DNA of 62,833 nt, counting the filler, from Folioceros fuciformis (taxonomy: Eukaryota): assembly GCA_049999805.1 (NCBI GenBank). It is 5 parts of 4 records of this genome, joined end to end, with 100 filler letters (N's around TTAATTAATTAA, not from the genome) between each part and the next. Parts side by side here need not be neighbours in the genome. Positions count along the whole stretch, not along the records: positions 39,504 to 52,116 come from JBNGIO010005754.1; 4 more parts are not named here. One strand, written 5' to 3'. A program made the translations under genes and the position numbers. The notes beneath the pieces are model-generated. The model was not told where the DNA came from. It made no database searches and saw only the letters and a list, made by a program, of their open reading frames with translations. Of this stretch, positions 5,542-60,090 are shown one piece after another; position 1 is the stretch's first letter; the number at the start of each line of letters is the position of its first letter.

Positions 5542-6669
5542 GTCGTGAAGCACCATCAATGCTCCTCGTGCCATACCTGTACCACCAATGGACACCTATT
5601 ACACTGTACATAGGGTAGAATACAGTCTGTTTTGGAGATTGCGCATCCGTCCTTGCATTGCCCTTGTCCACGTATGCAAGGTGCCGCATGTCAGAAATCC
5701 CGGTTTTGGGCTATTGTCGGAAACCGTTGATCCAACGTCGGTACTGGACCCAGTGGTGGGACAAAATAGGCTCCGTTCCTATCGAGTCAAGACAGGACCC
5801 GTCTCGTTCCGTTCGATAGAAGGGGAACTAGGGAGGTATATAATGTACGGGGAACGATATGCCAAATCGTCAATGCAAAATTGAGCACGATATTTAATAC
5901 ATGCATATCACAATCCCATGTCGCAAAACCCCCATCATAAATCTAATGATTTTGTCAAAGCTATGTCTTAAATACTATCATAAATGGCCTCAAAATGTAG
6001 TAGTGAAGGCATATCGATTGTTGCTATACACTATACAATGGTTTTGTTTCTCAATGAGTCACTATTATAAACAAAGTTTGTTGTAGTAGACAAGGTCTTA
6101 CATTTTAGGTTTCCTCCATGTAAGAGAGGCCATGTAAAAAGATGCGTTGTTAGGTTTTTCAACACCTCCTAAACAGGTGACATCCTCATGTTTTCTTGTA
6201 TTGATTTTCCTAGGCTTAGTGTACAAGAGAAGTTAGCACTGACTCTTTTGTCCTCCTTTGTGGGATGTGAGCGTAGCTCATGGTATCAGTGACTACAGAA
6301 GAGTGAGAACTAGACATCCGGTGTATGAAGTAGGTAAGTTCTATATGTGCACCTAATGTCCAAGTACAGACAAGCCTTCTATCAATGCTGTTGTACTAGA
6401 GTTTCTCTTTTTCAAGCATTCTCCTCATTTGACAAAGTCACCCATACTAATATGGATTTATATCCTATAAATTGGGAATGTTCCACTAACTTGACCGACC
6501 CCTCTGTTCCAAACTCTCATCCATTGAGCATTGCACTTGCTGGGTGTTAAGGAATGCTAGTAGTAAGGCTGGTATGGGCAGCCCATCACCTGCACTTCTC
6601 AACAATTTTGATGCACCCATAGTAGTGGACCGACCATGAATCCAACTAGAGTTTTGCTTCAAGGGATTT

Positions 6670-21036: not shown

Positions 21037-21530
21037 CTCAGCAAACAAGATACCTCCTGCACTCAGCAAACAAGATACCTCCTGCACTCAGCAAACAAGA
21101 TACCTCCTGCACTCAGCAAACAAGATACCTCCTGCACTCAGCAAACAAGATACCTCCTGCACTCAGCAAACAAGATACCTCCTGCACTCAGCAAACAAGA
21201 TACCTCCTGCACTCAGCAAACAAGATACCTCCTNNNNNNNNNNNNNNNNNNNNNNNNNNNNNNNNNNNNNNNNNNNNTTAATTAATTAANNNNNNNNNNN
21301 NNNNNNNNNNNNNNNNNNNNNNNNNNNNNNNNNCAGCAAACAAGATACCTCCTGCACTCAGCAAACAAGATACCTCCTGCACTCAGCAAACAAGATACCT
21401 CCTGCACTCAGCAAACAAGATACCTCCTGCACTCAGCAAACAAGATACCTCCTGCACTCAGCAAACAAGATACCTCCTGCACTCAGCAAACAAGATACCT
21501 CCTGCACTCAGCAAACAAGATACCTCCTGC
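21037..21530. repeat. 25-bp tandem repeat spanning a gap
   Basis: The perfect unit CAGCAAACAAGATACCTCCTGCACT occurs about 8 times on each side of the gap. Confidence 0.95.
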
Positions 21531-30656: not shown

Positions 30657-31294
30657 GCATCCCCTGTACCTTTCTTCATGTATGAGACATGGCTAGAATT
30701 TCCTAGCCTTCCTCCCAATAGACGGAGCCCAACCAGCTCTTTACCATCTTTTCACCCTCTTGTAATCCGACTTTGTGCAATATACAGGTTATGCAGTACT
30801 TGTATTGGATGCCAAAGCCCCAAAAATCAAACTTGTGATGTCGGTCCGTCACAGGGAGGTTTCTAAAACCTAGATGCTGCCTTTTGCTCGGGTTCGTCAG
30901 GCATCAGGGCGTCCTTGCCTTGGACGGAAGCTCGTTTGTGAGATGGAAGAAAGATCAATTCTGAGATTGAAGCAAGATCAATCGTGAGATTGACGTCAGA
31001 TCATGTGTTAGCTTGAATTCAGGCATTGGTAGCTGAACTCACGTGCTCTAAGACGGAGTTCGCCTCATCGATGCAGTCCAACTCATTTGCGCCCAACTAT
31101 CGGAAGACTCATGTGGAGGACCTTGTATGGTTGAAAACACGAATGCACTTCGAAAGCCCCTCGCATTGTGGATGAACATTTCTAGGTGAAACAAGGTCAT
31201 CCTTCAAGCCCGGTTGGGTTTGACATGTCAGGAAGCCGCTTGTCAGGACACTCTGCTTCGGCTGTCAGCGAGGAACGGGATTTTGTTGGATCGA

Positions 31295-33850
31295 ATGGCG
31301 TCGCAGATGAATTTCTTCGTGGGGGCCTCAGACAAACAGTCTGCCATCCATCCTATGCGCAATCTGTTGGCAGCAAAGTCGAGCTCGATACCAGTGAAAT
31401 GTGGCTGTGTGGTCCGGAACAGTCTACCATGGAACGTAGCAATTATAGCGCAGGATTTGAGGCCAGCAGCAAAAAGCATGACGCACAAGGAGCGGCAGGA
31501 GCTCTTATGGCAGCAGTTCTTCTTGAATCCCTTGGATTGGTGGGATAACAGGGTTGACAAGCAAAGCCCCCGGCATCCCGACTTCAGGCACAAGACCTCC
31601 GAGGAGCCCCTGTGGCTCAACAGCCCTCGCAAGCCGGCTTGGGTGGATTCTGAGCTGGCCAGGTGGGATGTCGAGATGAGGGGGCTTCCAGCATTGGATG
31701 CAGGAAACGTTGATGACGGAAATGCTGTGGAGAAGTCTCTAATTAAGCGTTGCGAGGAGGCGGAGCTGGGTGAAGCTGTGAAAGCGTTGAACCTTTTGGT
31801 GCAGCGGGGATATAGTATCAGCCACAGTGTCTTCTATCGAATCCTCAAGAGATGCGTGGTAGAACGGGATCTGGGTTGTGGTAGGCTAATTCATGCTCTT
31901 GTCCAAACAGGTGGGTATGGCTCTAACGCATTCGTGGCCAACCACATCATCGGCATGTACGCTTCTCATGGAGAGTTGGAGGATGCTGTGCAGGTCTTCA
32001 GGAATGTGATTGCACCCAGTGCACACATGTGGTCCTCTATTATTCTAGCGCATGTCCGACTTGGACAGCCGGCACAGGGTATACAGCTCTATCAGCAGAT
32101 GAAGGAAGCAGGCGTGAAGGCAGATAACCGTGTATTTGTTTCAGCTCTCAAGGCGTGTGCGTTGGCAGGGGACCTAGTTTCTGGCAAGCAGGTGCACGTT
32201 GATATTCCAGAGGGTGCTGAGCAGGAAGATGTTTTTTTGGCTACCAGCTTGGTGAGCATGTATGCTAAATGCGGAAGCTTAGTGGAAGCTCGCAAAGTGT
32301 TTGACGGTCTACGGAGGAAAAATGTGGTGACATGGAATGCCATGATCACTGGGTATTCTCAGCAGGGCCTGGGCCGAGAAGCCTTAGCTCTGTATGAAAT
32401 CATGCAGCATGAGGGCATGACTCCAGCTGATCATGTCACGTTTGTGTGCCTTCTTCAAGCATGTGCCAGTGCCGGGGCATTGCAGCTGGGTAAGCAGGTT
32501 CATTTGCAGATTCGTGCCAGAGGTCTCGAAGGTGACGGGCGAATCGGCAACTGTTTGGTTGACATGTATGCCAAATGCGGGAGGTTAGATGATGCTCGAG
32601 TAGTATTTGACAATTTGCTGACAAAAGATGTGGTGTCGTGGAATGCGATGATAGCAGGATACGTGCAGCAGGGTCTTGGTCACTATGCTCTGACTCTCTA
32701 TGCTTCCATGCGTGAGGAGGGCATAAGTGTTGCCAGTCTCGTGACATTCTCGTGCCTTTTACAAGCATGCGCCGATGTGGGGGCGCTGCAGCAGGGGAAA
32801 CAGCTCCATTCGGAGATTCGGGAAAGGGGCCTTGAAGGTGATGTGTTCATTAGCAGCTGCCTGGTGGACATGTACTCAAAATGCGGCACTCTGGAAGATG
32901 CTCGCGAAGTATTTGACAGTTTCCCTACAAGAGATGTTGTGACCTGGACAGCCCTGCTGAACGGTTATGCAGAGCACGGCGATGGCCTCAAGGCAATCCA
33001 TTGTTTCGAAGAGATGCTTAAGCAAGGTATCAAGCCCAATGACACCACTTTCCTTTGTCTTTTGGTAGCCTGCAGTCACGCAGGCCTGGTACAAGAAGGC
33101 CAGAAGTATTTCAACAAGATGATCGAGAACCATGGCATTAGACCCAACGCTTATCACTACAGCTGCATGGTTGATCTTCTCGCCCGGTCAGGCCAACTGG
33201 ACGAGGCAGAACACATGCTGCGGACGTCAGCGTTTGTGAATAATGTGGTGGGCTGGAAAGCTTTGCTGAGTGCCTGCAAAAGCCACGGTGATGCAGAGCG
33301 CGGAAAGCGATGCTTTGACTATCTTGTACAACTGGACCCCGAAGACGCAAGCGCATACGTGCTGCTGGGTAACATCTGTGCCAATGCCGGCAGGTGGAAT
33401 GATGTGAGCAGGATAGAGAGCCTGAGAAAGTCAGTAGGTGCTTGGAAGAAGGCTGGGAAGGCTTGCATTGAAGTTAGAAACGAGGTGCACGAGTTCACAG
33501 TAGGAGAAGACAGGTCTGACATCTCATCCAAGCTGAGGAGCGTGAACACAAGGCTGAAGGAGGAAGGGGGCCACCTGCCACGCACAGAGCTAGTGTTGAA
33601 GGCGGTCTCTGAACAGGAGAAGGAGGATGCCTTGTGTGGCCACGCAGAGAAGCTAGCCTTGGCTTATGGTCTGCTGAACACTCCAGATGGTGAAACTTTG
33701 CTAGTCACCAAGAACCTTCGCATGTGTGAGGATTGCCACAGTAGCACCAAGATCATGTCTCGGCTTGAATGTCGAGAGATCATTGTGCGAGATGCACACC
33801 GAGTGCATCGGTTCCTGGATGGGTCTTGTTCGTGTGGGGATAGGCATTGA
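31295..33850 (+). CDS. PLS-class PPR protein with E1-E2 and a variant DYW (DYW:KP / DRH-type) domain, plus an N-terminal OSB-type PDF motif; candidate organellar RNA-editing factor
   Basis: Uninterrupted ORF with the first in-frame ATG at 31295; an upstream exon via the AG at ~31185 is not excluded. Architecture: (P)LS-PLS-PLS-PLS-P2L2S2-E1-E2, then KKAGKACIEV, HAEKLA, NLRMCEDCH and CSCGDRH*. Confidence 0.93.
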   Translation: MASQMNFFVGASDKQSAIHPMRNLLAAKSSSIPVKCGCVVRNSLPWNVAIIAQDLRPAAKSMTHKERQELLWQQFFLNPLDWWDNRVDKQSPRHPDFRHKTSEEPLWLNSPRKPAWVDSELARWDVEMRGLPALDAGNVDDGNAVEKSLIKRCEEAELGEAVKALNLLVQRGYSISHSVFYRILKRCVVERDLGCGRLIHALVQTGGYGSNAFVANHIIGMYASHGELEDAVQVFRNVIAPSAHMWSSIILAHVRLGQPAQGIQLYQQMKEAGVKADNRVFVSALKACALAGDLVSGKQVHVDIPEGAEQEDVFLATSLVSMYAKCGSLVEARKVFDGLRRKNVVTWNAMITGYSQQGLGREALALYEIMQHEGMTPADHVTFVCLLQACASAGALQLGKQVHLQIRARGLEGDGRIGNCLVDMYAKCGRLDDARVVFDNLLTKDVVSWNAMIAGYVQQGLGHYALTLYASMREEGISVASLVTFSCLLQACADVGALQQGKQLHSEIRERGLEGDVFISSCLVDMYSKCGTLEDAREVFDSFPTRDVVTWTALLNGYAEHGDGLKAIHCFEEMLKQGIKPNDTTFLCLLVACSHAGLVQEGQKYFNKMIENHGIRPNAYHYSCMVDLLARSGQLDEAEHMLRTSAFVNNVVGWKALLSACKSHGDAERGKRCFDYLVQLDPEDASAYVLLGNICANAGRWNDVSRIESLRKSVGAWKKAGKACIEVRNEVHEFTVGEDRSDISSKLRSVNTRLKEEGGHLPRTELVLKAVSEQEKEDALCGHAEKLALAYGLLNTPDGETLLVTKNLRMCEDCHSSTKIMSRLECREIIVRDAHRVHRFLDGSCSCGDRH

Positions 33851-39201: not shown

Positions 39202-39549
39202 CTCCTCACACCAGTACTCGTGCAGCCAGATCTCGCACCTCCAACCCAGTCCTTTGGGGCTGCGATTAAGATATGAAGGAGGAGGAGCTGGGATAGCCTC
39301 ACAGAGTCGTTTCTCCTTCCCCAGCAGTTCGTCTGGAATTCCTGTCAGGGTGCCTGTACCTGAGCATCTTCTCATCCTGACCACCTCCTCCACGCAGTAG
39401 CTCNNNNNNNNNNNNNNNNNNNNNNNNNNNNNNNNNNNNNNNNNNNNTTAATTAATTAANNNNNNNNNNNNNNNNNNNNNNNNNNNNNNNNNNNNNNNNN
39501 NNNAGGTATATAACAATGTAACTTAAGAAATATTTAATAACTCTAACAG

Positions 39550-42338
39550 TTTGTGGACCTATGCCCACTGTATCGTTAGGGGGTGCATCCTATTTTGTCA
39601 CTTTCATTGATGACTTCTCATGCAAGGTGTGGGTTTATACTTTGAGGAAAAAGGATGATGTTCTGACAGTGTTTCAGAAATTTGTCACCCTTGTGGAGAA
39701 TCAGTCTGGCCTCCGGCTGAAGTGTCTGAGGACCGAAAATGAGGAAGAGTATGTCTCGAAGGCTTTCCAGTCATTCTCTGATTCCAAGGGAATCAAGAGA
39801 GAATTGACTGCGCCATACACTCCTCCCCAAAATGGTGTGGCTGAACGAATGAACAGGACCATCCAGGAGAGGATGCGTAGTTTATTGTCAAACTCTGGAT
39901 TGCCTAACGGATTTTGGGTGGAAGCAGTGGTTACTGCAGTGCATCTTATTATCAGATCTCCTAATAGGGCTGTGGATGAACAGGTTCCAGAGGAGATGTG
40001 GTCTGGAAAGAAGCCGTCATACAAGCATCTACGAGTGTTTGGCTACGAGGCATACTACCATGTTCCTAAGGAGTTTCGGGACAAGTCGGAACCCAAGTCC
40101 AAGAAATGTATTTTTCTTGGCTATGGTGAATCTGGTGAGATGGGATACCGTCTGTAGGATCCAGAGGCCAAGAGGATGATTCGCCTCAATGACGTGTCCT
40201 TCAATGAGACCAAGATGCTCAAGAAGCCTACTCCAACTGTGGAGGTGCGACAAGTGGTCTTCCAAGAAGATGGACTTGACCATCATGCGCAGGTTGAACG
40301 TCGTGATGTGCAGGAACAAGTTCCTCCACTTGTACAAGAGGAGAGAGTGCAACCAGCTCCGGTCGAGGCGCCAATGCTTCATAGGTCAGGAAGGATCTCA
40401 CGTCCTCGTGACATGTATGTTACATCTCTTGATTATGTCATGCTGACGGATTGTGGGGAGCCCTCTTGTTATCAAGAGGCCATGTCAGTGATTGACAAGG
40501 ACAAGTGGGAGAAGGCGATGCAGTCATAGATGGATTCCCTCCATAAGAACCAAACTTGGGAGTTGGTTCAGTTGCCTAGGGGCAAGAAGGCGTTGCCATG
40601 CAAATGGGTGTATAAGATGAAGGACATACCCCATTATGGCAAACCCAAGTACAAGGCACGATTGGTTGCGAAGGGTTTTAAGCAATTGCAAGGTATTGAC
40701 TTTGACTCTCACCAGTTGTCAAAATGACCACCTTGCGATGTGTTCTTGGTCTGGTTGCGAGGCTGGACATGGAACTTGTCCAGATGGATGTGAAGTCGGC
40801 ACTTTTGCATGGTGATCTCCAGGAAGAGGTATACATGAAGCAACCAAAGGGTTTCATTGAGAAGGGCAAAGAGAATCTAGTGTGCAGGCTAAAGAAGAGC
40901 CTTTATGGTTTGAAGCAGGCACCCAGGGAGTGGTATTTCAAGTTCCACTCATTTATGCTTTCTCAAGGCTACAAGTGTAGCGATGAGGATCATTGCCTCT
41001 ATACGAAGCAAGCTAAGGATAGAACCTTGCTCATTCTGGTCCTTTATGTGGATGATATGCTAATTGCTGGGACTAACAGTGATGAGATTTCAGTGTTGAA
41101 GTCAAAGTTGAATGCTCGCTTTGACATGATAGACTTGGGAGAGGCAAGCCATATTTTTGGCATGCGTATTCGTCGACACAGACAGAAGCATTTGCTTTAC
41201 TTGTCTCAGACTGACTACATTAACAAGGTGCTTCAACGTTTCAATATAGAGAAGGGGAAGGTATTGAGTACTCCGTTGCCTCCATATGTGAAACTTTCGA
41301 GCAAAGATTGCCCAAGCTCCACGGAGGACAAAGCTGAAATGGAGAAAGTTCCATACTCATCACCTGTGGGGAGTTTGATGTATGCAATGATTGCTACGCG
41401 TTCTGACATTACGTTTGCACTGGGAGTGGTTAGCAGGTTTATGTCAAACCCTGGCAGGAAGCATTGGGAGGCAATGAAAGGAGTTATGAGGTACTTGAAT
41501 GGTACAAAAGCTTTGTGCATATGTTTTGGTAGTGAAGATGCATCTGTTGTGGGATATACGGATGCTGATTATGCATGGCATATGGACAAAAGGAGGTCCA
41601 CATCCGATTATGTCTTCATGTGCACTGAAGGGGCAATCTCATGGCGATCGCGTTTGCAATCGTGCATAACGCTATCTACCACAGAGGCCAAGTATGTTGC
41701 AGCGACTGAGGCATGCAAGGAAGCCTTGTGGCTTGCTCGTTTAGTGGGAGATTTGGGGATCAAGGTTGATCTGCCAGTGTTGCATTGTGATAGCTAGAGT
41801 GCTATCCAATTGGCAAAGAATCCAGTGTTTCATGTGAAGACCAAACATGTGGAAGTGAAGTATCACTTCATTCGAGAGGTGTTGGAAGATTATAGGGTAC
41901 AACTTGTCAAAATTCACACCAGTCAGAACCTTTTAGATGTTCTTACCAAGGGGCTCTCTACGGAGCAATTCGCACAAGCTCGGACACTCATGGGCATTAG
42001 GTAGACCACTCTCCTATAAAGGTAAATTGGCCTTTAAGTGGGAGGTTGTAGGGTTATTAAAGCCCAATGTGCTTAGACTAATGTGTTTAGTCTAAGATTA
42101 GTGTCTAGTTAAGTATCATTAGTTTAGTTTAGCTTAAGCTAATCTACAGGAAGCTTCTTATGCAGCTTCCTGTGGGCTTCTCGTGAAGCTTCCTAGGAAG
42201 CTCTTCTAGAGGGTATAAATACCCCCTTGAGCTCCCTTGTATTGTGAGACTCAATGTAAGAGTGTGACCTCTCTTTCTCCTCTCCTTCTTGCCTTCTGCT
42301 CTCCTCTCCTTCACCATGCTCCTCTAGCCATCCTTTCA
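39550..42338 (+). mobile_element. Ty1/Copia retrotransposon family A, 3' half (integrase, RT, RNase H, PPT, 3' LTR), degenerate
   Basis: [59 protein letters not shown] and TKHVEVKYHFIRE. A purine tract AAGTGGGAGGT precedes the LTR start TGTAGGG at 42047. Confidence 0.92.
42047..42338 (+). repeat. 3' LTR of Copia family A
   Basis: TG...CA ends and an internal TATAAATA; aligns along its length with 55738-56031. Confidence 0.85.
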
Positions 42339-43798
42339 AGGCGGGCCTCGGCAGGATCCGGGCTGGATCCAAGTGCCCAGGGAGGCGGCGCTGGATCTGG
42401 GCAGGCGGCCTGAATGGCGGCTAGGCCAGCAGCACGGACACCCGGCTGCAGGCAGGGAGGGCGTCGAGATCTAGGTAGCCATGGCTAGCTGGCTAGGATT
42501 GCGAGGGGGGCTGGCTCCCTGGCTAGATCCAAGGGGGTAGGCAGGTGCCCCATCAGCGCAGGCAGCCAGCGGGCTAGCCAGAAGCAGGCTGGCAGGGGGT
42601 TGGCTGGCGAAGCAGAAGGAGAAGGGCGACTTGCCTGACACGTCCATGCTGCCCTCGCGCCTTCACATTGCAAAAGACGACTCTCATATTGATCGGGACA
42701 GACAAGTTGCAGGTCACTACCTCCAGGTGGCGGGGGCTGGAGGTTCCCATGTTGCTCTGCCTGTGGAATCAGATAGTGAGAAGAACGGCAGGGTTTTGAC
42801 GTCGGTGCGTATTCCTCTTGAGTGGGGTGGTTATGGCCAGCTCTTTGTCCAAGAGATCACAGGTGCTGGGAGACTTGTCAAAGCTGCTTGGTTTGGTTGG
42901 CAAGGAAACCCCAACCTGCAGGACGGGGCCCAATGGGAGAAACTGTGCAGGAACTAGGTTATTCCATGATGGGTTTTCTTACAGTGATGGCATTGGTAGA
43001 GCTGGTTTTTGGGAGCCCATAGTTGGAAAAGATGGGAACGAGAAGGCTGTCCCTTCAGGCATGCACATGCGCTCTGATTTCAATGATGAGCCCCTTGTAG
43101 CGGCGGTTTGCAAAGGCTCATGGGATCGAGAGCATAGCGATAAGGGTTGCAATTGCAAAGGTCAAGTGGGCAGTCTCCATCGCTGAATAAGAAGTTCTCA
43201 CCGAAACATTTCCGCCGGGACTGAGCCCATAGTTGGAAAAGATGGGAACGGGAAGGCTGTCCCTTCAGGCATGCATATGCGCGCTGATTTCAATGATGTG
43301 CCCCTTGTAGCGGTGGTTTGCGAAGGCTCATGGGATCAAGAACATAGCAATAAGGGTTGCAACTGCAAAGGTCAAGTGGGCAGTCTCCATCGCTGAATAA
43401 GAAGTTCTCACCAAAACATTTCCGCCGGGACTAGAAGCGAAGACAGGGGAAGTCAGTGGAGTGAAGTGTGAGCTGCTGGGGTGTAGAAGTGTGAGCTGAA
43501 GTGAAGAGGTGAGTGACTGAAGTGAAGTGATGGGCTGAAGTGGAGACATGAAGGGCTGAAGACTGAAGTGCTGGAGTGTGGAATTATTGGGCTAAGCTGA
43601 GGATAGGCTAAGGATTCTGACCTTTTTGCTGGAGTACGGTCAAGGTTAGGAACCGGCTGATAGATATGGTGAGAGTACGAAATTGCAGGTACCCTTGACA
43701 CTAGTTCACTCCCTTGGGAGCGAATCATAAGACTGCAACGACAATAAGGGGAAGTGTGGCCCCTTTGGTGGTTCTTGGGTGTAAGAAATCACTCCACA
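42339..43798 (+). mobile_element. Right part of a large LTR, containing a 210-bp tandem duplication (43013-43432)
   Basis: Ends ACTCCACA with the shared 3' block. GGCTAGGCCAGCAGCACGGACACCCGGC (~42419-42446) matches the reverse complement of ~60165-60192. Confidence 0.65.
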
Positions 43799-46700
43799 GT
43801 AAGGCTTTTCTGACCATTGGGATCTAGGAGGTCGATTTCTAGTGGAGCATCTCAAGGCTCCCACTGGCTGCAAGTTGTCTCTTGGTTGACGAGGTTGTGA
43901 GGGGACAAGATGATTAGGTTGAGGTTCGACAGGCTAGTCAGCAACAAAGTCATCAATAAAATCTTCAGCTATGTTTCCCCTCTCAAGGTCACTATCTATA
44001 TCACTATCTGAGGTATGGCCTTGATTAATTAGCTGATTGACTTGGGGACCAGCTGGGAATGGTTGGCCTAATGGAAGTTGCTGACCTGCTGGAAATGGTG
44101 CTCCCACTACAGCTAGAGCTCGTGCTAATAGGGTATCATCCTCCTCGTCCTCCATAATATCTTCAAGATCATCCTCCAAGGGAAACTCCTCAAGGGAGGT
44201 GAGAGTCTCATGAGGTAAGGAATTTGTAACCTTAGGTTGAAGGGCTCTCTTCTCATTAAAAATGACTGATCTTGCATGAAACACCTTGTGCTTGAGGGGA
44301 TCATACAGCTTGTAGCCGTGAATCCCATATGTATAGCCAATGAAGATGCATGGTGTAGTCTTGGAGTACAATTTCTGCGTAACTGCTGAGGTACATGTGC
44401 ATATGCAGGGCTACCAAATATGCAATGAAGAAACATCCGGCTTCCTATTGTGCCCAGCCTCAAAGGGTGTTACCTTAGCAAGTGTAGCAGTAGGGAGGAT
44501 GTTCTGTAGGCAGGCTGTTGTAGCAATAGTTTCGGCCCAAAATTTAGGGTTTAGAGGTAATCCTGCTTGATGAAGCATGCTTAGGGCTGATTCTTGCAGC
44601 GATCTATGCTTACGCTTTGCTCTCCCATTCATCTCTGAATTATAGGGGATTGTCAATTGACGAGTGATTCCCCTCTGTCTGTAGAAATCTTCAAACTCAT
44701 TGGAAAGGTATTCGCCACCATTATCCAAGCGAAGAGACTTCAACAACTTGCCAGTATGACGCTCTGCATAGGCCAAGTAATCCTGAAAAGTCTGGAAAAC
44801 CTCACTCTCTGCCTTCAGGATATACAGAACTGTAAAATGTGAATAGTCATCCATATAGACTAAAAAATATCTGCCACCTTCTATGGAGGGTATTGACATA
44901 GGACCACAAACATCTGAGTGAATAAGAGACAATAGCTCAGTTTTGCCCTTTCCACTACCGAAATGTTGTTTCCTTTGTTTTCCATGGATGCAGGCTTCAC
45001 AAATTTTTTTTGGAATATGCTTAATAGATTCCATACCACTTACCAGCTGTTCCTTCACTATCCTGGTCATGATTGCAGTTCCTAGATGCCCTAAACGGCA
45101 ATGCCATGTGAAGGCTGAAGATGAATTAGGATTCAACGAGGAAACTGCATAATTATGAGCTGCAGGTATACTATCATTCTCACACAACAATGGAGTTATA
45201 TTCAATTTATATAGGTCATTATGTGCAAGTCCTATAGCAACTGGAATTTGCATATTTGATTTCCTATAAATATAACATGCCTCATCTTTTAGCATAGTTC
45301 TGTAGAGCTTAGTTCTGCCTAAGCACATGCTGCTAACAAAGGTTTTTGGCTATAGCAGGAAGGGTGTTTATCAAATTGAGAATGCTACCATCTGCCATTT
45401 GCATAGATACTGTGCCAGATCCAACAATGTCCGTGGATGTGTCATTGCCAAGGTAAACTTTTCTTCCAAGTGGAGATGACACATAGTCTTGAAAGACTAA
45501 TTTTTCTAAACACATATGATTTGATGCCCCACTGTCCTAGAACCAACTGTATCTATCTACAGCTGAGGATGTTAAACAAACAACAAGCATACCGGGGGTT
45601 GAGCTCCTTACTACGTTAGCCTCAATTTTTAGTTTGCCATTATCCTCATCAAATTTCCTGCAATTCTTAGCCCAATGTCCAGGTTTTTTGCAATAATTGC
45701 ATGTACCTCGTTTTCTCGTTGACTGATTCGAACTAGTACTGTGATTTGAATCAGGCCTCTTACCCCTACTAGCACTGAATCTACCTCCTCGACCACGTCC
45801 AGGTGTGAAGTTGCCTCTAGGTGAGAAGCCTTGGTCAGCATACATAGCTCTTGACGTTGATCTAGAGCCTGAAGAACCTGCTGACTTCTTCATTTGTTCA
45901 TATTGTTGGAGTGCAGCTATTACACGCTGGACAGAGAGATTAGAGGATTATGCTACCCTAGCCGAGGTAGGGGTAAGAGTTATGGATTGCTGTAGTCCGG
46001 TGTTGAATTGAGTATAGCTAGGAGGTAATGAAGCAAGTAATGTAATAGAAGCCTTATGCTCCGTTAATGTAGTCCCTACTGCTATAAGATTAGCTCGAAG
46101 TTTTCTGAATTTGTTTAGGTGATTTTCTATAGAGTCATCTTCTCGCATTTTCAGGCCATGAAGAGCCTGTTCGGCTGTGACCTTCGACATCATATCCGTG
46201 CATTGATATATGTCAGATAGTAATTCAATAGCTTCTTTAGAAGTCTTGCATAACCTGATATGATTTATCATGTCGGATGTAAGGCCAGATACCACCACTT
46301 GCAATGCTTACATATCTTTGGTTTCCCATTCATATATATCTTTTTGTGTATCCTTATTTATAGTTCCTCCTGGTGTAGGAGGTCTATTACTTCCAACTAC
46401 TGGTTTCAGTTTTGAACCATCTGCAATTTTCCATTAAATGGAATTCTTTTTTGATACAATTAATCCTAAAATACCATATATCAAACTCTCCCGTCAAATC
46501 GGTCTTTCTCTTTTAATAAATGTATAGAAGACATCTTGAGAGAATCGATATGTGCTTCTGAGCTAGCTATTCAAGCTGCTCATTTCTACGTAAAAAATTT
46601 AAATTTAATTTTTCTGAGTCCTTATTTATAAATGGAGGCTTCATAATAGGTGTCTGATGTTTTATTGATAAAATTGTTTGAATAATTAAAGCAGTTCTTC

Positions 46701-47508
46701 TATCATCTGCTGCATTATTCCTGGAATTTTGGATTGTAATTGATCTTTGAATATCAGAAACTAAACACTATAACTTATCGATTTTAGTGTTAATACCAAG
46801 AATTTCAGAATTGACTTGATTAAAGAATCTAAAATAATCTAATTCTTTCTTAATACTTGTAGGTTTAATATTTATTTGTGATGAAGCTTGCCTCCCTATC
46901 TTCTCATTATGCTCAAAAACTCCTGAGTTTAAAAACTGCCTCCTAGAAGACCTAGTAAGTCTTAAATGTTCTAATTTGTCATTAATACAATGAATAACAA
47001 TAGGAGGTTTAGAGATTAAATAACCATCTGGCTGGCAAGTTCTACAAGCATTAAACCTTTTTCTAGGCATTCTTGCTGTCTATCTTAATTCTACATATGA
47101 TTTTGTATTCAAGAAACCCATAGAATTTTCTATGTTTACATGGTTTCTTTAATAAAATGAGTCTAAAATTTAAAGAACTTTATATCTATTTTTCTAGACA
47201 TTAGATTCTAAAAAGTTTTAGACGGGATTAAAGAGAATAAAATTCTCTATTCAACCCTATAAGATCTACATGGCTCTAATACCATGTTTGAGTTTAAAAT
47301 ATCATCTTAGGCGGAAATATAAGAACCTAAACTTAAACTTGAAAGAAAATAATAATAAAATATTGAGTACAAAATTGTTTTTATGTTGTTGTTTGCCAAA
47401 TGTGGTACCCCTAGATATCTTACTTATTAATTAAACTATTAATTAAATTTATGGCATAGTAACTAATATTCTATAATTAGGGTTTATTAAGATAACCCTA
47501 TTTTAACA
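43799..47508 (-). mobile_element. Ty1/Copia retrotransposon B, 5' half (LTR ~47508-47285, PBS, gag, zinc knuckle, protease, integrase), cut off before RT
   Basis: Gag LKMREDDSIENHL..LLASLPPSY, zinc knuckle CNYCKKPGHWAKNC, and integrase WHCRLGH..CEAC, IHSDVCGP, LRLDNGGEY. Coding homology stops abruptly at 43799 (..SQWSEKPY). Confidence 0.88.
47271..47284 (-). promoter_or_regulatory. Primer-binding site complementary to initiator tRNA-Met (Copia B)
   Basis: The minus strand reads ...AAACA|TGGTATTAGAGCCA, one mismatch from canonical TGGTATCAGAGCCA, directly after the LTR-terminal CA. Confidence 0.85.
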
Positions 47509-47530
47509 CAAACACGATGTATAAGACACA

Positions 47531-49097
47531 TGTGGACGCCTCGAAAAGCAGCAAAGTAAAGATCAGCATTCCGACTTGCAGGCCTGGTGATGACCGCTAC
47601 CGGATGGGGAGATCCAAGCAAGCGAGTGCACGCAGTGTACCTGGGTGGAGGTGTCGAGATTGCGTTGCTCCACGACAGTGATCTGAGGGGCGAATCGGGA
47701 GGAAGACCCTCACCGAGTGGAAGCTCGCTTCCCTACTACCCCGAATATCTTTTGTTGTGAGAGTTGACGAGAACGTGAGGGGACGAATCCGCTGGTTGCG
47801 GAGTGGAGCGGGTTACCGTGTCCCTTATCCCCTAACGCCTCGTCAGCTGTTCTAAAGCTTGAGAAGAAGAAGGAGCGAGTGAAAGAGAAGGAGGTCAATC
47901 GAGGAGTAAGACGAGAACGAGAGGAGAAAGAAGTGTGGGAGCTGTGGCAAAAAGAAAGGGTTGTCGCAAGCTATCGGAGTCTGGGTNNNNNNNNNNNNNN
48001 NNNNNNNNNNNNNNNNNNNNNNNNNNNNNNNNNNNNNNNNNNNNNNNNNNNNNNNNNNNNNNNNNNNNNNNNNNNNNNNNNNNNNNCTGGCTAAGGAACC
48101 GTCGCGGCAGTGCACCGTGGAGGGGTTCCTGATTGCTTGTACAAGTGGCTGGAATACTGTGACCAGATTGTGAGTGAACTATGGGTGAGATTTGGACTGA
48201 GTGGGTTTTGTGTCTGGCGAGTAAGTAAGTATGCATGTATGTGTGCGGGAATCGGAGGGACATACGAAGGACGCTAGTGAGGGCGCTGTGACGAGAGGAG
48301 TAGGAGTTGCTGTATGTGATAGAGGCTGAGTAGTTTGTGAATGGTAAGAGGTCAAGAAACGTGCGAGTGAGTGACTGGCCTTGGCAAATGCCTGTCTGAG
48401 AAGTCGTGCATTGCGAACGTGCGAGTGAGTGACTGGCCTTGGCAAATGCCTATCTGAGAAGTCGTGCATTGCGCTGAGTGTGTGTTGTTTGGAGTTAAGA
48501 GCGGAAACCAGTGCAATCATAGTTGGGCCTAATCGGGGCCATAGAAGGGTGTGATCCGCAGGATAGTTTCTTGGATGCGAAGGCCGTGGGTGGAGAGTGA
48601 ATAGCAGTGAGTAGAGTAGGCAACAAGAGGCGCGTAACTGGTTAGGGGTAGCGTAAACCCCGAAAATACTGTTTAGGCTCTGCAGGTAACTTGGGTTAGA
48701 GATAGAAAGAGACTAAGAGTGGGACCCACCGAGGTAGTGGAGACCATCACCGTTGTGGAGTAGCGATCGAGGTAGTCGAGGGCTGAGGTAGCAGAAGCAC
48801 CTCCGGGGTAATTGGGAAGTCGGTAGTTGAAGAGACCCCCTTCCCCGGTAGTTGAGTACGTCCGTAAGGTAGTTCAGAGCCGTGGTAGCTAAGTTGCAAT
48901 GGAGGTAGTAGTAGTTGATCAATAGGAAGAGGAGCGGCAAGTAGGTAAAGCCTGAACTTAGGTAGTAACTGACTTTTAGAAGAAACCTGTGTTATTTGAC
49001 ACAAATCATTCCCTTGGGATCGAATCCCATGGCTACAACGACATAGAGGGCTTGTGTGGACCTCGCGGTACCCCTAGGTACAATATTTTCCCCCACA
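47531..49097 (+). mobile_element. Large LTR (solo LTR, or two ends joined across a gap)
   Basis: Starts TGTGGAC and ends CCCCACA, with the shared 3' block at ~48996-49097. There is a gap at 47987-48086 and no matching TSD was seen. Confidence 0.55.
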
Positions 49098-49282
49098 AGC
49101 GCCACAATGAAAAGGATGCGGGCCGGCCAGCATCCTTCTGGTGACAAGGAACAGATGCCACATGCCTGTTTGGCATAGGGGCTACATTTTTTTTTTATTT
49201 AGGTGCCGGATTAGAGTACTGCAACATTTCAAACACATTTATCCCAACACTAAACAATGAAGCCTTACACTCTAATCCTACC

Positions 49283-49879
49283 CTAGTCAAGATGAGCGTT
49301 TGCTGCAACCTCAGAGTCCAATACTACAGCCATATTTTGCAATAGCACTTCGTCCGTGGCAACAAAGTTGTCCACTTCTTCTACAGCTTTGTGCTCAAGT
49401 CTTGAATCTTCACCGTCCTCCTGGTCCGCTGTTGGTGCTTCCCATACCCTCTCCAATGTTTGCTATCTTGGGTCCAAGACCTCATTTGTTTTCCTGCCTC
49501 TCCTCTTCGACGTCAAGGAAACCACTTGCGCTTGGGTTGAGTCCTTCTCGCTGATACAAACCTCCTTGGCCCAGAACTGGGATGGCTCTCTATTATGAGG
49601 GTCGAACGTCAGCTCTTAATCTGCATCTAGAAGCACCTCATACCAGTGGATACGCTTGCCTTTAATGGCTACACAGTTGCGCCCCGATAGCAATGCCGCC
49701 AGCAATGTAGTCCCGCTGCCTGAACAAGCATCAACAATCCACTCTCCCTCTCTACTGAAGCTACAAAGCAACCTGTCCATCAGCCCTAGTGGTCACTGAT
49801 TTGGGCATACAACCCTCTTGTCATGGGAGAGGTAAACATGTTTCTTCACCACTGTATCATGCACAATGATGGACCTCAT
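49283..49879 (-). pseudogene. C-terminal half of a beta-class N4-cytosine/N6-adenine DNA methyltransferase (N6_N4_Mtase-like) with acidic tail
   Basis: One reading frame: ..KRVVCPNQ*PLGLMDRLLCSFSREGEWIVDACSGSGTTLLAALLSGRNCVAIK.., matching the consensus HPxQKPxxLxxxLIxxxSxxGxxVLDxFxGSGTTxxAAxxxGRxxIGxE. It has three internal stops and a final TAG at 49283-49285. Confidence 0.75.
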
Positions 49880-50329
49880 GTTAGAGCATAAGCTTAATAG
49901 CGCTTAGGGTTAGGGTTATGTTATGTTAGATAGGGTTATATATCCAAAGGTCACTTAGTGAAGGGTTGCTTAGTATATAAGACTGTAGAGGAAAAAAACT
50001 TTCAGGACTCCCATTTGTGAGCTCTCGAACTTTGGGGACCAGGGTGGTCTATGGAGGCGGTTGTTGTGGAGACGGTGATGAAGGTTAGGAAAAGGCGAAA
50101 TGAAGGGGAGCGTGCTCGGAGGCTGAGCTTGTATTTGTTCTTGGAAAATAAACGGAGGCAAGGGCGGAGGTAAAATTTGTTGACGTGCAGGGCAAGAGTT
50201 GGTGATTGCCGAAGAAGGTGGTGACGGATGGCAGCCCCTGACGCTAAGGTGGATTGAGCCATAACGGCGGAAGATGGGATCTGAGGTTTGGCAGGATTGC
50301 GTTTTTTTTTGGAAGCCGGGAGTGGTTGG

Positions 50330-50832
50330 ACGGATGATTTTGACTTTGGTGGAGACGATGCGATGATAACAAAGATGGAAAGAGAGCCTTCTCGGAGCTT
50401 GATGATGAGGACGAAGAGATATACCCCGCGAGAAAGATCTACGGTGGTTCACCTGGTGCAGCCCCTGATCATGCTACCACCATGATCCTTAATCTGCGAG
50501 CCAGCCTTGCTGATCGAGAATCTGCAATCAAGTCTTTGCAGGGAACTCTCGATTCCACAACAGCAAACCTTGAGCGGTGGCATGCAGCCTTTCACGATGA
50601 ACCTTTCATGTCGGCTGGTTCTGCCCCAGAACCTGAAGCGGTTGTGCAGGAATTGCAGCGCCTTAGCAACTCTGAACGCCAGATGAAAGAACAGGTGTTG
50701 CTCAGTAAACGGAGAGAGGGTGCTATGATTGTTAAGCTAGCATCAAAGGAGCAAGAACTAAATGAAGTGAAGGCCTCCACCAATGACCTGAAGCAGATGG
50801 TGAAGCCTCCCATGTTGCAGGCAGCACGGCGA
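50330..50832 (+). pseudogene. FIP37: Intronless, 3'-truncated fragment of FIP37/WTAP (m6A writer-complex adaptor)
   Basis: DDFDFGGD (frameshift) GKRAFSELDDEDEE..HATTMILNLRASL..ERWHAAFHDEPFMSAGSAPEP..SERQMKEQ..KRREGA..KEQELNEVK..DLKQMVKPPMLQAARR. Homology stops before the conserved LLLDPA. Confidence 0.8.
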
Positions 50833-52216
50833 CCCCAGAATGCGGCCAGCGACGGCTCCCCGAACTCGGGAGGGCTTGGTGGCGGGGGCACCGCGCACAG
50901 CAGCATTTTGTCCTGACGGCGGAAGGGCCCCATCAGGCCTCTTCTTGAAGCGGGGGTAGAAGGCCCTTTCTTTGCGGTTTTCTGGAGATGGAGGAGAGGC
51001 TTCTTCCAGGAAGGTTCTGGTAGCCCGTTCTTGTAGGCAACGCAAGCGAGGAGGAGTATGGTACACAGCTGCTAGGCCTGCGCGATGCAGGGGAGCTGGG
51101 ATTGGTCAGGGAGCCGCGGATGCGCATTCCATGCTGCAAGGCTACTGCGGCGTACGAGGCTGTAGATTAGTTGATTGATTGCTCTTGGGATCGTGATGGA
51201 GGAGGATGGGAAGGAGAGCGTGGCTCCTCCCGCGAGAGAATGGGTTGGGAAAAACAGGTACAAGGAAGGGGGCCTAACTGTCATCCTGTGCCTGGCGGCG
51301 TGGTCGGTTCTCTCTGGAAGTGCGGGGATTGCAGTCAGATGGTCCGTGGGGATGTATCGCTTCAGCGACAGGCCGGTCGATCACAGGATGGATGCCCTAT
51401 CCTCGTTGCTGATGAATAAGGTGGATGACCGGCGGGAGGTAGCCGGACTCGCTCGCTGGGAGCTGGCGGCAAGAGCTGAGGTCGTGCGGTGGGTTTGGGA
51501 CAAGTACTTCAAGGATCCACACATCAGGATCAGCCGGTTTTGGCAGGAGTGCTTTGATGCTGAGTTTGAGGGGTCTGAGAAGCCGAATCCCCGGATCTTG
51601 ACTGCCGAAGCGGACCCAGCTTCTAAATTACCGCTCTGGCATCAGTGACGCCCATTCGTTCCTGGCGTTTCGACACAGTCTCAATGGAGACCGATGAGCT
51701 TACAGAGGGCAGCACGATTTGAAAATTTGCATTTTGTGTAGACGAAACCGTAGACTGACTATGAGAATCTGACACAGCGTCTTTCCCTGACGCTGACGCA
51801 GTCATGGCTCGGCGGAAGAGGACTCAAGTTGCTTGCAGGAAAAGTCAGACGACGACACGGCGGGTGGCCAGTGTGATAGGCTGGCACTTGCTTTCAGCAT
51901 TTTGACCAGGTGCCACAGAAACAGGAGAACGAAGAAAAGATAGGTACGTTGTTCAGTCTTCCATAGGCCAGCCACCACAGAACAAGTATGCCTCGGTAGC
52001 ATGAAACAGGATGCAGACAAGCTGGATGCCGGCGGCGGGACCCAGGGGGTGGACGAATTTGGGACGCAATCGATTCCGAGCCCTGCGCCCTCACCCTTCG
52101 GGAACTCCATAAAAGANNNNNNNNNNNNNNNNNNNNNNNNNNNNNNNNNNNNNNNNNNNNTTAATTAATTAANNNNNNNNNNNNNNNNNNNNNNNNNNNN
52201 NNNNNNNNNNNNNNNN

Positions 52217-55200
52217 AGAGCTGGGACACCTTTCGTACAGCTCTGAGTAATTCCGCTCCTGCCAGTGGTCTTACCATTGTAAATGTAGAAGGTAGCCAGT
52301 TAACAGAGGAGGTGAACAGGAAGAATATGGAACCTTCGAAAGGTTCCAATGCCCTCATGGTCAGAGGAAGGTCCACTTCAAAGGGGAAGTACAAGGAGCG
52401 AAGTTCTTCCCGTAGTAAATCTCGTAGTTGTAACAATGCTGAGTGTTACCATTGTCACAAGAAGGGTCAAATCAGAAGGGACTGCGAGAAGTTCAAGAAG
52501 GACAAAAGAAAGGAGAAGAAGCAAAGCGACAACAAAGCAAGTCCGAGTACCAAGCCTAACGAGGTGAATTCTGTTGACGATAGAGATGTTCTTATCTCTT
52601 CTTCCTTCGATTCTGCACAATTGACAGCCGTGGAGAGTCACTTATTCTCTAATTGGATAATTGACTCTGGAGCATCTTTCCATGTTACTTCGCATAGGGA
52701 GTGGTTTAGCACGTATGATGCTACTAGGAAAGAATGTGTACGGCTGGGAAATAACTACGCATGCGAGATTGCAGGTGTTGGTGATGTGTAGTTGAAGTTC
52801 GACAACGAATCTTCCTTCGTACTGAAGGATGTTAGGCATGTTCCCAAGTTGGCTAAGAGCATGATTAGTGCAGGGCAGTTGGATGATGCTGGCTACCACT
52901 GTTGGTTTGGAGATCGTTCTTGGAAGATCTCCAAAGGTTCTCTTGTGTAAGCTCGTGGATCGAAATGTGGCACTTTGTACTCACTTCAGGTAACCACTAT
53001 CAAGGATCATGTGATTTGTGTAACGGAACAGCCAAGTGTTTCCTTGTGGCATAGTCGGTTAGGACATATGTCTCAAAAAGGAATGAAGATACTATCTCGT
53101 TTTGGTTACGTCCCTGTTTTTGACTTCTCCGATTTCTCCGTGTGTGAGCACTGTCTGTATGGGAAATAGACGAAGTCACCACATGGAGCAAGAGGTAAAC
53201 ACAAAAGTAAACCTCTTGAGTTGGTTCACAGTGACGTTTGTGGACCTATGCCCACTGTATCGTTAGGCGGTGCATCCTATTTTGTCACTTTCATAGATGA
53301 TTTCTCACGCAAGGTGTGGGTTTATCCTTTGAGGAAAAAGGATGACATTCTAACAGTGTTTCAGAAGTTCGTCACCCTTGTGGAGAATCAGTCTGGCCTG
53401 CGACTGAAAGTCTAAGGACAGACAATGGGGGAGAGTATGTTTCGAAGGCTTTCTAGTCATTCTGTGATTCCAAGGGAATCAGGAGAGAATTGACTGCCCC
53501 GTACACTCCTCCCCAGAATGGTGTGGCTGAACGGATGAACAGGACCATCCAGAAGACGATGCGTAGTTTGTTGTCAAACTCTGGATTGCCTAACGGATTT
53601 TGGGCAAAAGCAGTGGCTACTGCTGTGCATCTTATTAACAGATCTCCCAATAGGGCTATGGATGAACAGGTTCCAGAGGAGATGTGGTCTGAAAAGAAGC
53701 CGTCATACAAGCATCTACAAGTGTTTGGTTGCGAGGCATACTACCATGTTCCGAAGGAGTTTCGGGACAAGTTGGCACCCAAGTCCAAGAAATGTATTTT
53801 TCATGGCTATGGTGAAACTGGTGAGATGGGATACCGTCTATGGGATCCAGAAGCCAAGAGGATGGTTCGCAGCAGTGACGTGTTCTTCAATGAGACCAAG
53901 ATGCACAAGAAGCCTACTCCAACTATGGAAGTGCGACGCGTGGTCTTTCAAGAAGATGGACTAGACCGTCCCGTGCAGGTTGAACGTCATGCTGTGCAGG
54001 AACAAGTTCCTTCACTTGTAGAAAAGGAGAGAGAGCAACCAGCTCCAGTCGAAGCGCCAATGCTTTGTAGGTCAAGAAGGATCTCACGTCCTCCTAACAG
54101 GTATGTTGCATCTCTTGATTATGTCATGCTGGGGGATTGTGGGGAGCCCTCTTGTTACCAAGAGGCCATGTCAGTGACTGACAAGGACAAGTGGGAGAAA
54201 GTGATGCAGTTGCAGATGGATTCGCTCCACAAGAACCAAACTTGGGAGTTGGTTTGCTTGCCTAAGGGCAAAAAGGCGTTGCCCTGCAAATGGGTGTATA
54301 AGATGAAGGACATATCCATTATGGTAAACCCAAGTACAAGGCACGATTGGTTGCGAAGGGTTTTAAGCAACAGCAAGGTATTGACTTTGATGAGATTTTC
54401 TCACCAGTTGTCAAAATGACCACCTTGCGATGTGTTCTTGGTCTGGTTGCGCGGCACGACATGGAACTCATCTAGATGGATGTGAAGTCGGCATTTCTGC
54501 ATGATGATCTCCAGGAAGAGGTATACATGTAGCAACCAGAGGGTTTTATTGAGAAGGGCAAAGAGAGTCTGGTGTGCAGGTTAAAGAGAGCCTTCATGGT
54601 TTGAAACAGGCACCCAGGGAGTGGTATTTCAAGTTCCACTCATTTATGCTTTCTCAAGGCTACAAGTGTTGCGATGAGGATCATTGCCTCTATACGAAGC
54701 AAGCTAAGGATGGAAGCTTGCTCATTCTGGTCCTCTATGTGGATGATATGCTAATTGCTGGGACTAACAGTGATGAGATTTCAACATTGAAGTCAAAGTT
54801 GAATGGTCGCTTTGACATGACAGACTTGGGAGAGGCAAACCATATTCTTGGCATGCGTATTCGTCGAGATAGACAGAAGCGTTTGCTGTACTTGTCTCAG
54901 ACTGAATACATTAACAAGGTGCTTCAACGTTTCCATATGGAGAAGGGGAAGGTATTAAGTACTCCGTTGCCTTCATATGTGAAACTGTCGAGCAAGGATT
55001 GCCCAAGCTCTGCGGAGGACAAAGCTAAAATGGAGAAGCTTCCATACTCATCAGCTGTAGGGAGTTTGATGTATGCAATGATTGCTACACGTCCTTACAT
55101 TGCCTTTGCAGTGGGAGTGGTTAGCAGGGTTATGTCAAACCTTGGCAGGAAGCATGGGGAGGCAGTGAAAGGAGTTATGAGATACTTGAATGGTATGAAA

Positions 55201-56031
55201 GCTCTGTGCTTATGTTTTGGTAGTGAAGATGCATCTATAGAGGGATATACGGATGCTGATTATGCAGGAGATATGGACAAAAGGAGGTCCACATCAGGTT
55301 ACGTCTTCATGTGCACAGGAGGGGCAGTCTCATGGCGATCTCGTTTGCAATCATGCATAACGCTATCTACCACAGAGGCCGAGTATGTTGCAGCGACTGA
55401 AGCATGCAAGGAAGCCATGTGGCTTGCTCATCTAATGGGCGATTTAGGGTTCAAGGTTGAGCTGCCAGTGTTGCATTGTGATAGCCAGAGTGCTATTCAA
55501 TTGGCAAAGAATCCAGTGTTTCATGCGAAGACCAAACATGTGGAAGTGAAGTATCACTTCATTCGAAAGGTGTTGGAAGACAAGAGAGTACAACTTGTCA
55601 AAGTTCACACCAGTCAAAACCCTGTAGATGTTCTCACCAAGGGGCTCTCTTCGGAGCAATTCGCACAAGCTTGGACACTCATGGGCATGAGGTAGACCAC
55701 TCTCCTATCAAGGTAAATTGGCTTTTAAGGGGGCGGTTGTAGGGTTATTAATGCCCAATGTGCCTAGACTAATGTGTTTAGTCTAAGATTAGTGTCTAGT
55801 TAAGTATCATTAGTTTAGATTAGCTTAAGCTAATCTTTAGGAAGCTTCTTGTGCAGCTTCCTGTGGGCTTCTTGTGAAGCTTCCTAGGGAGCTCTTCTAG
55901 AGGGTATAAATACCCCCTTGAGCTCCCTTGTATGTGTGACTCTATTGTGAGAGTGTGACCTCTCTTTCTCCTCTCCTCCTTGCCTCCTCTTCTCCTCTCC
56001 TTCACCATGTAGCTCCTAGAGCGTTCCTTCA
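52217..56031 (+). mobile_element. Ty1/Copia family A, second copy (gag end to 3' LTR 55738-56031), degenerate
   Basis: CYHCHKKGQIRRDC, WIIDSGASFH, LWHSRLGH, VHSDVCGP, LYVDDML and RNase H motifs. Colinear with and visibly highly similar to 39550-42338. Confidence 0.93.
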
Positions 56032-59990: not shown

Positions 59991-60090
59991 NNNNNNNNNN
60001 NNNNNNNNNNNNNNNNNNNNNNNNNNNNNNNNNNTTAATTAATTAANNNNNNNNNNNNNNNNNNNNNNNNNNNNNNNNNNNNNNNNNNNN

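Follow-up and report, generated by a model that had tools for sequence, protein, structure and literature searches.

A broken reading frame of Folioceros fuciformis that is probably the last third of a eukaryotic ParB-linked amino-methyltransferase gene

The DNA analyzed here (the window; 62,833 nucleotides, filler included) consists of five parts of four records of the Folioceros fuciformis assembly GCA_049999805.1, joined end to end. On its minus strand, at 49283-49903, the window carries a broken reading frame, which is very probably a non-functional single-copy pseudogene comprising the last third of a eukaryotic ParB-linked beta-class N6_N4 amino-methyltransferase gene. The fragment is a member of PF01555 by descent, not an enzyme. 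It consists of the S-adenosylmethionine (SAM)-binding C-terminal third and the acidic tail, and nothing else of the gene is left in the window. The following features were assigned to it:

49283-49903, minus strand: whole pseudogene frame of 207 codons with three internal stops and a terminal TAG (translation)
49520-49888, minus strand: stretch homologous to the eukaryotic ParB-linked methyltransferase family (tblastn, blastp and family hidden Markov model, HMM)
49664-49804, minus strand: Pfam N6_N4_Mtase match, residues 34-80, profile positions 163-209 of 221
49793-49795, minus strand: in-frame TGA, codon 37, on the invariant K of the QKP motif (translation and alignment to relatives)
49616-49618, minus strand: in-frame TAA, codon 96, opposite Q of the collected protein P0014 and the Ginkgo proteins (translation and alignment)
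49463-49465, minus strand: in-frame TAG, codon 147, opposite Q of P0014 (translation and alignment)
49283-49462, minus strand: acidic C-terminal tail, a family feature, up to the terminal TAG (translation and alignment)
49283-49285, minus strand: terminal TAG (translation)

Minus-strand translation of 49283-49903 yielded the peptide PNQ*PLGLMDRLLCSFSREGEWIVDACSGSGTTLLAALLSGRNCVAI. An earlier note, made from the sequence alone, had quoted this frame and peptide as the remnant of a bacterial-type amino-methyltransferase, and both were reproduced. For the profile searches the three internal stops were replaced by X, giving protein P0001. The stop-repaired peptide gave the expected match to Pfam N6_N4_Mtase (PF01555; E 8.8e-10, 39.3 bits, above the curated cut-off of 26.7), and the assignment to the beta class was thereby borne out. 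The match takes in only the broken QKP element (Q-stop-P) and SAM-binding motif I (DACSGSGTT). PNQ*P ... DACSGSGTT aligned with HPTQKP ... DPFxGSGTT of PDB chains, the K codon being the stop. Among solved structures the best matches were the beta-class enzymes 9c3u, 8urk and M.RsrI (E ~1e-3), and rotifer N4CMT (8s9m) matched weakly (E 0.088). NCBIfam methylase models matched only far below their cut-offs. A word-indexed protein search with the fragment at near length returned 377 candidates, none at E <= 1e-3. With HMMER, 340 of the 1.84 billion representatives scanned matched at E <= 1e-3, four of them at E <= 1e-10 and none at E <= 1e-30.

The homologous stretch 49520-49888 takes in the part preceding QKP, then motif I and the beginning of the tail. 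In tblastn, P0004, P0010 and P0006 matched it with E values of 1e-15 to 3e-15, and the Ginkgo proteins P0012 and P0153 reached nucleotide (nt) 49520. When the fragment was compared by BLASTP with all proteins collected up to then, the top ten were family members of eukaryotic type, with identities of 41-50% over 54-75 residues and, for Ginkgo, 33% over 122 residues. A family profile built from 22 eukaryotic relatives scored 87.6 bits against residues 7-86 of the fragment, from HMM position 190; bacterial-type proteins mostly reached ~45-78 bits with this profile and mostly started near position 216. The family is marked by the motifs V.(N/S)PYQKP, FS..G(D/E)W and CSGSG(S/T) and by an acidic tail. 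The counterparts in the fragment, VVCPNQ*P, FSREGEW and its own acidic tail, align with P0014 and the Ginkgo proteins, the motifs being partly degraded.

Named members were found in Ginkgo biloba (Gb_37443 and four paralogues, some clearly degenerate), Chara braunii (GBG75370.1, GBG66685.1, GBG77312.1), the liverwort Riccia sorocarpa (KAL3699649.1, KAL3685543.1) and the sea cucumber Holothuria leucospilota (KAJ8049666.1); other assemblies contributed many more. The Chara, Riccia and Holothuria proteins are encoded on contigs of 2-104 Mb. The named proteins are uncharacterised and labelled 'DNA methylase N-4/N-6 domain-containing'. Thus, the proposal that such a family exists in plants stood and extends to other eukaryotes, whereas its bacterial character did not: the nearest relatives among the collected proteins are not bacterial and are ParB-linked.

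In 18 examined metagenomic loci, a conserved open reading frame (ORF) of 350-560 residues lies upstream of the methyltransferase frame, on the same strand; it is homologous to the N-terminal portion of the gene models from Ginkgo. A profile built on this upstream region matched 13 of the 219 collected proteins, and all 13 also bear the methyltransferase; proteins with both domains include those of Ginkgo, Chara GBG66685.1, Riccia KAL3699649.1 and Holothuria. An AlphaFold model of the upstream domain from nine sequences had a mean pLDDT (predicted local distance difference test) of 77.7 and a pTM (predicted template modelling score) of 0.69. Foldseek of this model against the PDB gave 13 matches with E <= 1e-3 (best 6.8e-6, probability 1.00). 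Among the matches listed, all of those with E <= 1e-3 were ParB or Noc CTPase-plus-helix-turn-helix (HTH) structures; KorB, PadC and sulfiredoxin ranked below them. By these matches, the upstream partner is a ParB/Srx-fold domain.

Profile searches of the PDB with the upstream domain gave no match, nor did PHROGs and NCBIfam. Pfam returned sub-threshold hits only (HTH_ParB at 8.6e-4 in one of ten members, DUF6551 at 0.009-0.03), and in tblastn of the family against phages only the methylase part was matched, not the upstream domain. Sequence methods thus left the domain without a name, and only structure modelling settled its fold. Fungal DUF3723 was also considered for this domain on an Atlas feature score of 0.95, yet no Pfam DUF3723 match was obtained and it is kept as a lead only. 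When the 18 upstream ORFs and the Ginkgo N-termini were compared with the whole window, no ParB-like match was found; a repeat occupies the place of the ParB-like region from ~49984.

The catalytic motif IV was counted in 75 family sequences, 41 of which cover it. The form D-[IVLF]-P-Y-G occurs in 33 of the 41, the others being SPPYG (one), DLPRG (two, P0004 and P0014), DIPHG (one, Ginkgo) and otherwise degenerate forms (four). The two DLPRG bearers are among the closest relatives of the fragment. Riccia KAL3685543.1 has DVPYGF, and KAL3699649.1 is without the motif IV region. The missing catalytic motif had been named as D/SPPY, which does not agree with the usual motif IV of the family. Against solved enzymes the family profile matched CcrM best (3e-13), followed by TTHA0409, M.RsrI (8e-10), 8urk/9c3u, N4CMT (1e-8), DpnA and MboIIA; this order does not decide between adenine-N6 and cytosine-N4 as the target.

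Synonymous divergence (dS) in the family is saturated, and omega was 0.01-0.31 in the 5 of 26 pairs with finite dS, which indicates that the family is under purifying selection. In P0156 and P0159-P0173 the acidic tail ends in a conserved (D/E)-(L/M)-N-x-(I/M/L)-L-x-D, which may be a docking peptide. Near the equivalent place the window copy has DEVLLQNM. The parent family would consist of DNA amino-methyltransferases producing N6-methyladenine (6mA) or N4-methylcytosine (4mC), with the ParB-like domain directing or loading them onto DNA.

Each of the three internal stops had been described as one C-to-T change away from CGA, CAA or CAG. The arithmetic is right, and TAA and TAG stand at Q of the relatives, but TGA falls on the invariant K of QKP, so that a CGA intermediate would need one extra step. 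The observed/expected CpG ratio was 0.48 in the fragment versus 0.59 in the whole window, which is mildly in line with C-to-T decay. The frame does continue into the acidic tail without frameshift, as claimed, since Ginkgo relatives align to nt 49520 and P0014 aligns beyond the third stop. After VA(V/I), the alignment places a K in the fragment where the relatives have an acidic residue, and ~9 residues are deleted thereafter. That the catalytic half is missing was confirmed in two ways. No [DSNT]PP[YFWH] with methyltransferase context was found in any frame of the scaffold 39504-52116, and when 13 proteins of the family and 18 upstream ORFs were compared by tblastn with the entire window, they matched 49520-49888 only, everything else having E >= 0.24. 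The truncation, the three stops and the loss of the acidic residue and of ~9 residues mean that the copy does nothing today.

U-to-C editing occurs in organelles of hornworts, ferns and lycophytes. All three stops could be converted by it (TGA/TAA/TAG to CGA/CAA/CAG), and another scaffold of the window carries a PPR-DYW gene. That the gene is alive, its stops being removed by such RNA editing or the fragment being an exon of an expressed gene, is nevertheless hardly credible. The read depth is that of nuclear single-copy DNA, not of an organelle, pieces of nuclear genes lie next to the fragment, its catalytic half is missing, and the acidic residue conserved after motif I and the ~9 residues are lost.

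The surroundings of the fragment comprise the following elements:

39504-52116: scaffold of the fragment
48087-52116: contig piece bearing the fragment, 4,030 bases
48984-49097: 3' flank, a very high-copy short repeat by read depth (4,400-5,600 versus ~10)
49984-52116: 5' flank, a moderately repeated element running to the scaffold end (depth 45-560, loose ends)
50285-50913, plus strand: FIP37/WTAP-like N-terminal piece, intronless, with a frameshift near 50344 (Pfam Wtap 29.6 bits, cut-off 35)
51175-51645, plus strand: DUF1195-like piece in the 5'-flank element

Read depth was taken from DNA runs bearing the same species label, three of them from one sample, perhaps the assembly's own. At 49167-49706 it was ~9.8, like that of the unique flank 48357-48761 (8.7-15). 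It rose to as much as 4,400-5,600 at 48897-49166. At 49977-52116 the summed depth was 45-560; variant contigs are numerous here, and loose ends occur at 49984 and 50016. Single-copy read contigs extend to 49960, and a 715-nt read contig is identical to 49052-49766 (0 differences) and overlaps the plant repeat. The fragment thus stands as a single-copy island, with a very high-copy short repeat on one side and a moderately repeated element on the other, and because of its single-copy depth it is a lone pseudogene, not an amplified transposon.

A second copy of the 3'-flank repeat lies at 5440-5508 of the window (84% identity). Searches of this repeat for tRNA and against Rfam gave no match, so that the label 'SINE' (short interspersed nuclear element) is unsupported. 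On the other side, a long terminal repeat (LTR)-like sequence had been placed at 49879. The homology, however, runs to ~49888 and repeat-type depth starts at 49984-50016, ~80-100 nt beyond the position given in the earlier note. Within the window no second copy of the 5'-flank repeat was found, and its LTR nature is putative. With its gene pieces, 49984-52116 has the look of a repeat that carries gene fragments. A possibly-RNA run yielded contigs that agree with parts of this element at 90-97% and diverge thereafter. This run (X3) covers 50088-52116 only, without the methyltransferase piece, and has no bearing on expression. In a further run (X4), a DNA run of the same sample, 58 of the 73 differing places over 48087-52116 were C>T, for example 51273, 51291, 51310 and 51312; this is the pattern that bisulfite or enzymatic conversion of the library would give.

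A bacterial contaminant chimera had been named as the outcome that would overturn the identification. The Pfam family is mainly prokaryotic, the fragment sits on a short 4-kb contig in a concatenated window, and multi-domain bacterial methylases top the raw HMMER list, the latter because the scores of several domains add up. Nevertheless, a read contig of single-copy depth joins the fragment to the plant high-copy repeat recurring at 5440-5508, the fragment has three in-frame stops and a CpG depletion like that of the rest of the window, and per domain its best matches are eukaryotic proteins encoded on chromosome-scale contigs of plant, alga and animal origin. We therefore regard a bacterial or phage contaminant, or an assembly chimera, as extremely improbable.

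How the copy became truncated concerns its origin, not its identity. It could be a 5'-truncated processed retrocopy of a family mRNA, a variant of the pseudogene reading that we consider possible though rather unlikely. The homologous stretch is intronless and only the 3' end of the coding region is kept; an A-run with AATAAA lies at 49187-49200, 82 nt past the stop; and one DNA-run contig joins 49097 to 49983, skipping 885 nt with the methyltransferase piece, as if that piece had been inserted. The methyltransferase frames of five metagenomic loci (L001-L005) are, however, uninterrupted as well, and the lack of introns therefore says little. The A-run lies ~90 nt inside the putative insertion and not at its end. 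No target-site duplication or flank repeat was found around the fragment, including no target-site duplication of at least 5 nt at matching positions.

For the non-functional pseudogene, we propose the following course. The parent gene would have been built like the intact relatives, with a ParB/Noc-like N-terminal domain, in the same polypeptide or in an ORF just upstream, a D-x-P-Y-G motif and an acidic tail. Everything upstream of ~nt 49888 would have been lost, the repeated element now standing from ~49984. Three stops would have been gained, two of them in the tail at Q of the relatives, as C-to-T changes would give, and the conserved acidic residue after motif I and ~9 residues beyond it would have been lost.

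Several observations weigh against this picture. A tree of the C-terminal core (119 rows, 96 columns) placed the fragment in no well-supported clade. Only ~80-125 residues are alignable, so that the family placement draws on a short stretch, and the score margin over bacterial-type matches is modest (87.6 versus up to ~78 bits). The closest relatives, P0004, P0008 and P0014, are assembly contigs of unassigned host. No intact copy from F. fuciformis was seen, and we therefore infer the parent gene. The DNA runs, being perhaps from the same sample as the assembly, do not give independent support. For the origin of the truncation, the missing target-site duplication stands against one insertion joint: the contig joining 49097 to 49983 hints that the 885-nt piece is an insertion between two repeats, a weak hint because the shorter side has only 21 letters in one contig.

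The methyltransferase had also been suggested to be transposon-borne. For the F. fuciformis copy this found no support, given its single-copy depth (at >= 90% likeness) and the lack of a transposase beside it. For the family as a whole, several findings count in favor of mobility: multiple paralogues, some of them degenerate, within the genomes of Ginkgo, Chara and Riccia; units of ~3.0-3.6 kb with 65-87% nucleotide identity within one assembly series, one of them 5'-truncated; and a patchy host range that includes an animal. Alternatively, the diverged copies could be orthologues from different species within a single sample. The methyltransferase unit contained no recognised transposase, integrase or reverse transcriptase. 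Two further genes are conserved around the metagenomic loci:

L001:1945-3081, L004:2994-3539, L005:4933-5028 and L006:966-2981, minus strand: DUF7869 gene, a conserved neighbour
L002:403-1779 and L005:138-1235, plus strand: a further conserved ORF (ORF-A) upstream of the ParB-like ORF, 35-38% identity

The DUF7869 gene (E 8.9e-50 in L006) has at least 672 codons and lies convergently beside the methyltransferase in four of six loci, all of one metagenomic subgroup with a G+C content of 47-50%; in the flanks of the other subgroup it was not found. Its motifs CIDGMDQ, VQLDNTSRENKN and VGHTHDQIDQ are reminiscent of DDE transposases, a putative resemblance. Searches with the protein against PDB and NCBIfam gave no match, no paper on DUF7869 was found in the literature, and a structure model from 3 sequences was unusable (pLDDT 30.7). 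This neighbour is only a hint of transposon carriage in that subgroup. Neither Pfam nor the PDB gave a match for ORF-A of L002 and L005.

A single distant locus, with 28% identity, was retrieved from IMG/VR by the methyltransferase profile; the ParB-like profile retrieved nothing there, nor in the prokaryote genomes. As the virus and prokaryote scans used two peptide patterns each, these absences are weak evidence. A broader idea would make the fragment a fossil of a mobile ParB-plus-methyltransferase module, patchily distributed in eukaryotes and with DUF7869 as a possible transposase in one lineage, the intact members being ParB-like clamp-loaded 6mA/4mC writers of nuclear DNA. We put it forward tentatively and think it unlikely.

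The fragment had further been placed inside a transposable element (TE) cluster. Repeats do flank it, but the neighbourhood was partly created by the joining of scaffolds. The whole window contains 852 N letters, partly as 100-N gaps and partly as paired 44-N runs around TTAATTAATTAA, a spacer with stops in six frames. Six-frame-stop spacers serve to string scaffolds together. The spacers and the remaining gene are:

21234-21333, 39404-39503, 52117-52216 and 59991-60090: spacers of the form N44-TTAATTAATTAA-N44
31190-33847, plus strand: intact PPR protein of 886 codons with E motif and DYW deaminase domain, on a scaffold other than that of the fragment

Adjacency across the four spacer points is not biological. 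Because the window is an artificial concatenation of scaffolds, the TE cluster around the fragment is in part an artefact of assembly; the copia elements past 52216 sit on a different scaffold from the fragment. Two copia-type elements on different scaffolds, at 39522-42318 and 53236-56009, share 92-96% identity over their integrase and reverse-transcriptase regions. The window is nuclear DNA of a land plant, with the PPR-DYW ORF, LEA_2, DUF1195, prefoldin, PHD-finger exons and many copia pieces; its G+C content is 49.6%.

Reports of 6mA and 4mC in the DNA of eukaryotes are contested, in large part for want of credible writer enzymes. To our knowledge, the accepted eukaryotic 4mC cases are two, DN4MT1 and N4CMT. 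The fragment itself is without function; its value is as a pointer to a eukaryotic family that combines a ParB/Noc-like domain with a bacterial-type DNA amino-methyltransferase. The family spans streptophytes from Chara to Ginkgo as well as an echinoderm, with a conserved non-canonical motif and purifying selection. As a third, structurally different candidate, it would supply testable enzymes, and if its intact members were active nuclear writers, this would be a eukaryotic DNA-methylation system not yet described.

With the Ginkgo, Chara, Riccia and Holothuria proteins the fragment has in common the family motifs (NPYQKP, FS..G[DE]W, CSGSG[ST]) and the acidic tail. These proteins are longer and mostly open, many with the ParB-like domain and motif IV, whereas the fragment lacks both and is broken by stops. 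Bacterial and phage PF01555 enzymes (CcrM, M.RsrI, TTHA0409, DpnA, M.MboIIA) have the fold and the motif order in common with the family, and the Atlas model of P0156 aligned with bacterial PF01555 models with a TM-score of up to 0.82 by target. What sets the eukaryotic family apart from these enzymes is its usual D-x-P-Y-G in place of (D/S)PPY, its acidic tail and its divergent ParB-like partner; for that partner, the scanned prokaryote and virus collections yielded no sequence-detectable relative.

ParB modules are known to associate with amino-methyltransferases in the ParB-Tls loci of phages, and independent prokaryote- or phage-to-eukaryote transfers of N6A-MTases have been described (Iyer et al. 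2016, PMC4738411; accessible portion). The eukaryotic clades reported in that portion are FHA-fused (haptophytes) or of the chlorophyte Dam type with a ParB-type HTH, and land plants show few N6A-MTases (PMC4738411). The streptophyte/echinoderm ParB-linked family is not among the clades described there. A literature search found no paper describing it, although homologue surveys in the Marchantia DN4MT1 work could bear on that. It is an undescribed-looking eukaryotic variant of ParB-associated amino-methyltransferases.

Bdelloid rotifer N4CMT (8s9m, 8s9n) is a PF01555 enzyme encoded in a eukaryotic genome and fused to a chromodomain; its authors reported no eukaryotic homologues. The ParB-linked family has a ParB-like domain where N4CMT has the chromodomain, and N4CMT is only a weak match to the fragment. 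A special kinship with it was not found (E 0.088 versus ~1e-3 for N6A enzymes, M.RsrI among them, with the fragment, 1e-8 versus 3e-13 for the adenine enzyme CcrM with the family profile). Marchantia DN4MT1a/b is a PF01555-type sperm 4mC methyltransferase of bacterial origin, with TSPPY, a prokaryote-like motif order and no extra domain, as described in the accessible part of the preprint. According to Rodriguez et al., too, no domain is added at its N- or C-terminus.

A relic of a DN4MT1/N4CMT-type 4mC methyltransferase, belonging to the horizontally acquired lineage that Marchantia or bdelloid rotifers have, would agree with the common Pfam family PF01555, with N4CMT chains among the PDB matches and with a land-plant window (PPR-DYW, DUF1195, LEA_2), DN4MT1 being by its partial description a land-plant enzyme. 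We consider such an origin very improbable. N4CMT matches weakly beside M.RsrI and CcrM, and the nearest relatives carry D-x-P-Y-G and the ParB-like domain, whereas DN4MT1, by the part of its description available, has TSPPY and no extra domains. It is by this description only that the ParB-linked family is set apart from DN4MT1. Both recovered proteins of the liverwort Riccia belong to the ParB-linked family and not to the DN4MT1 type.

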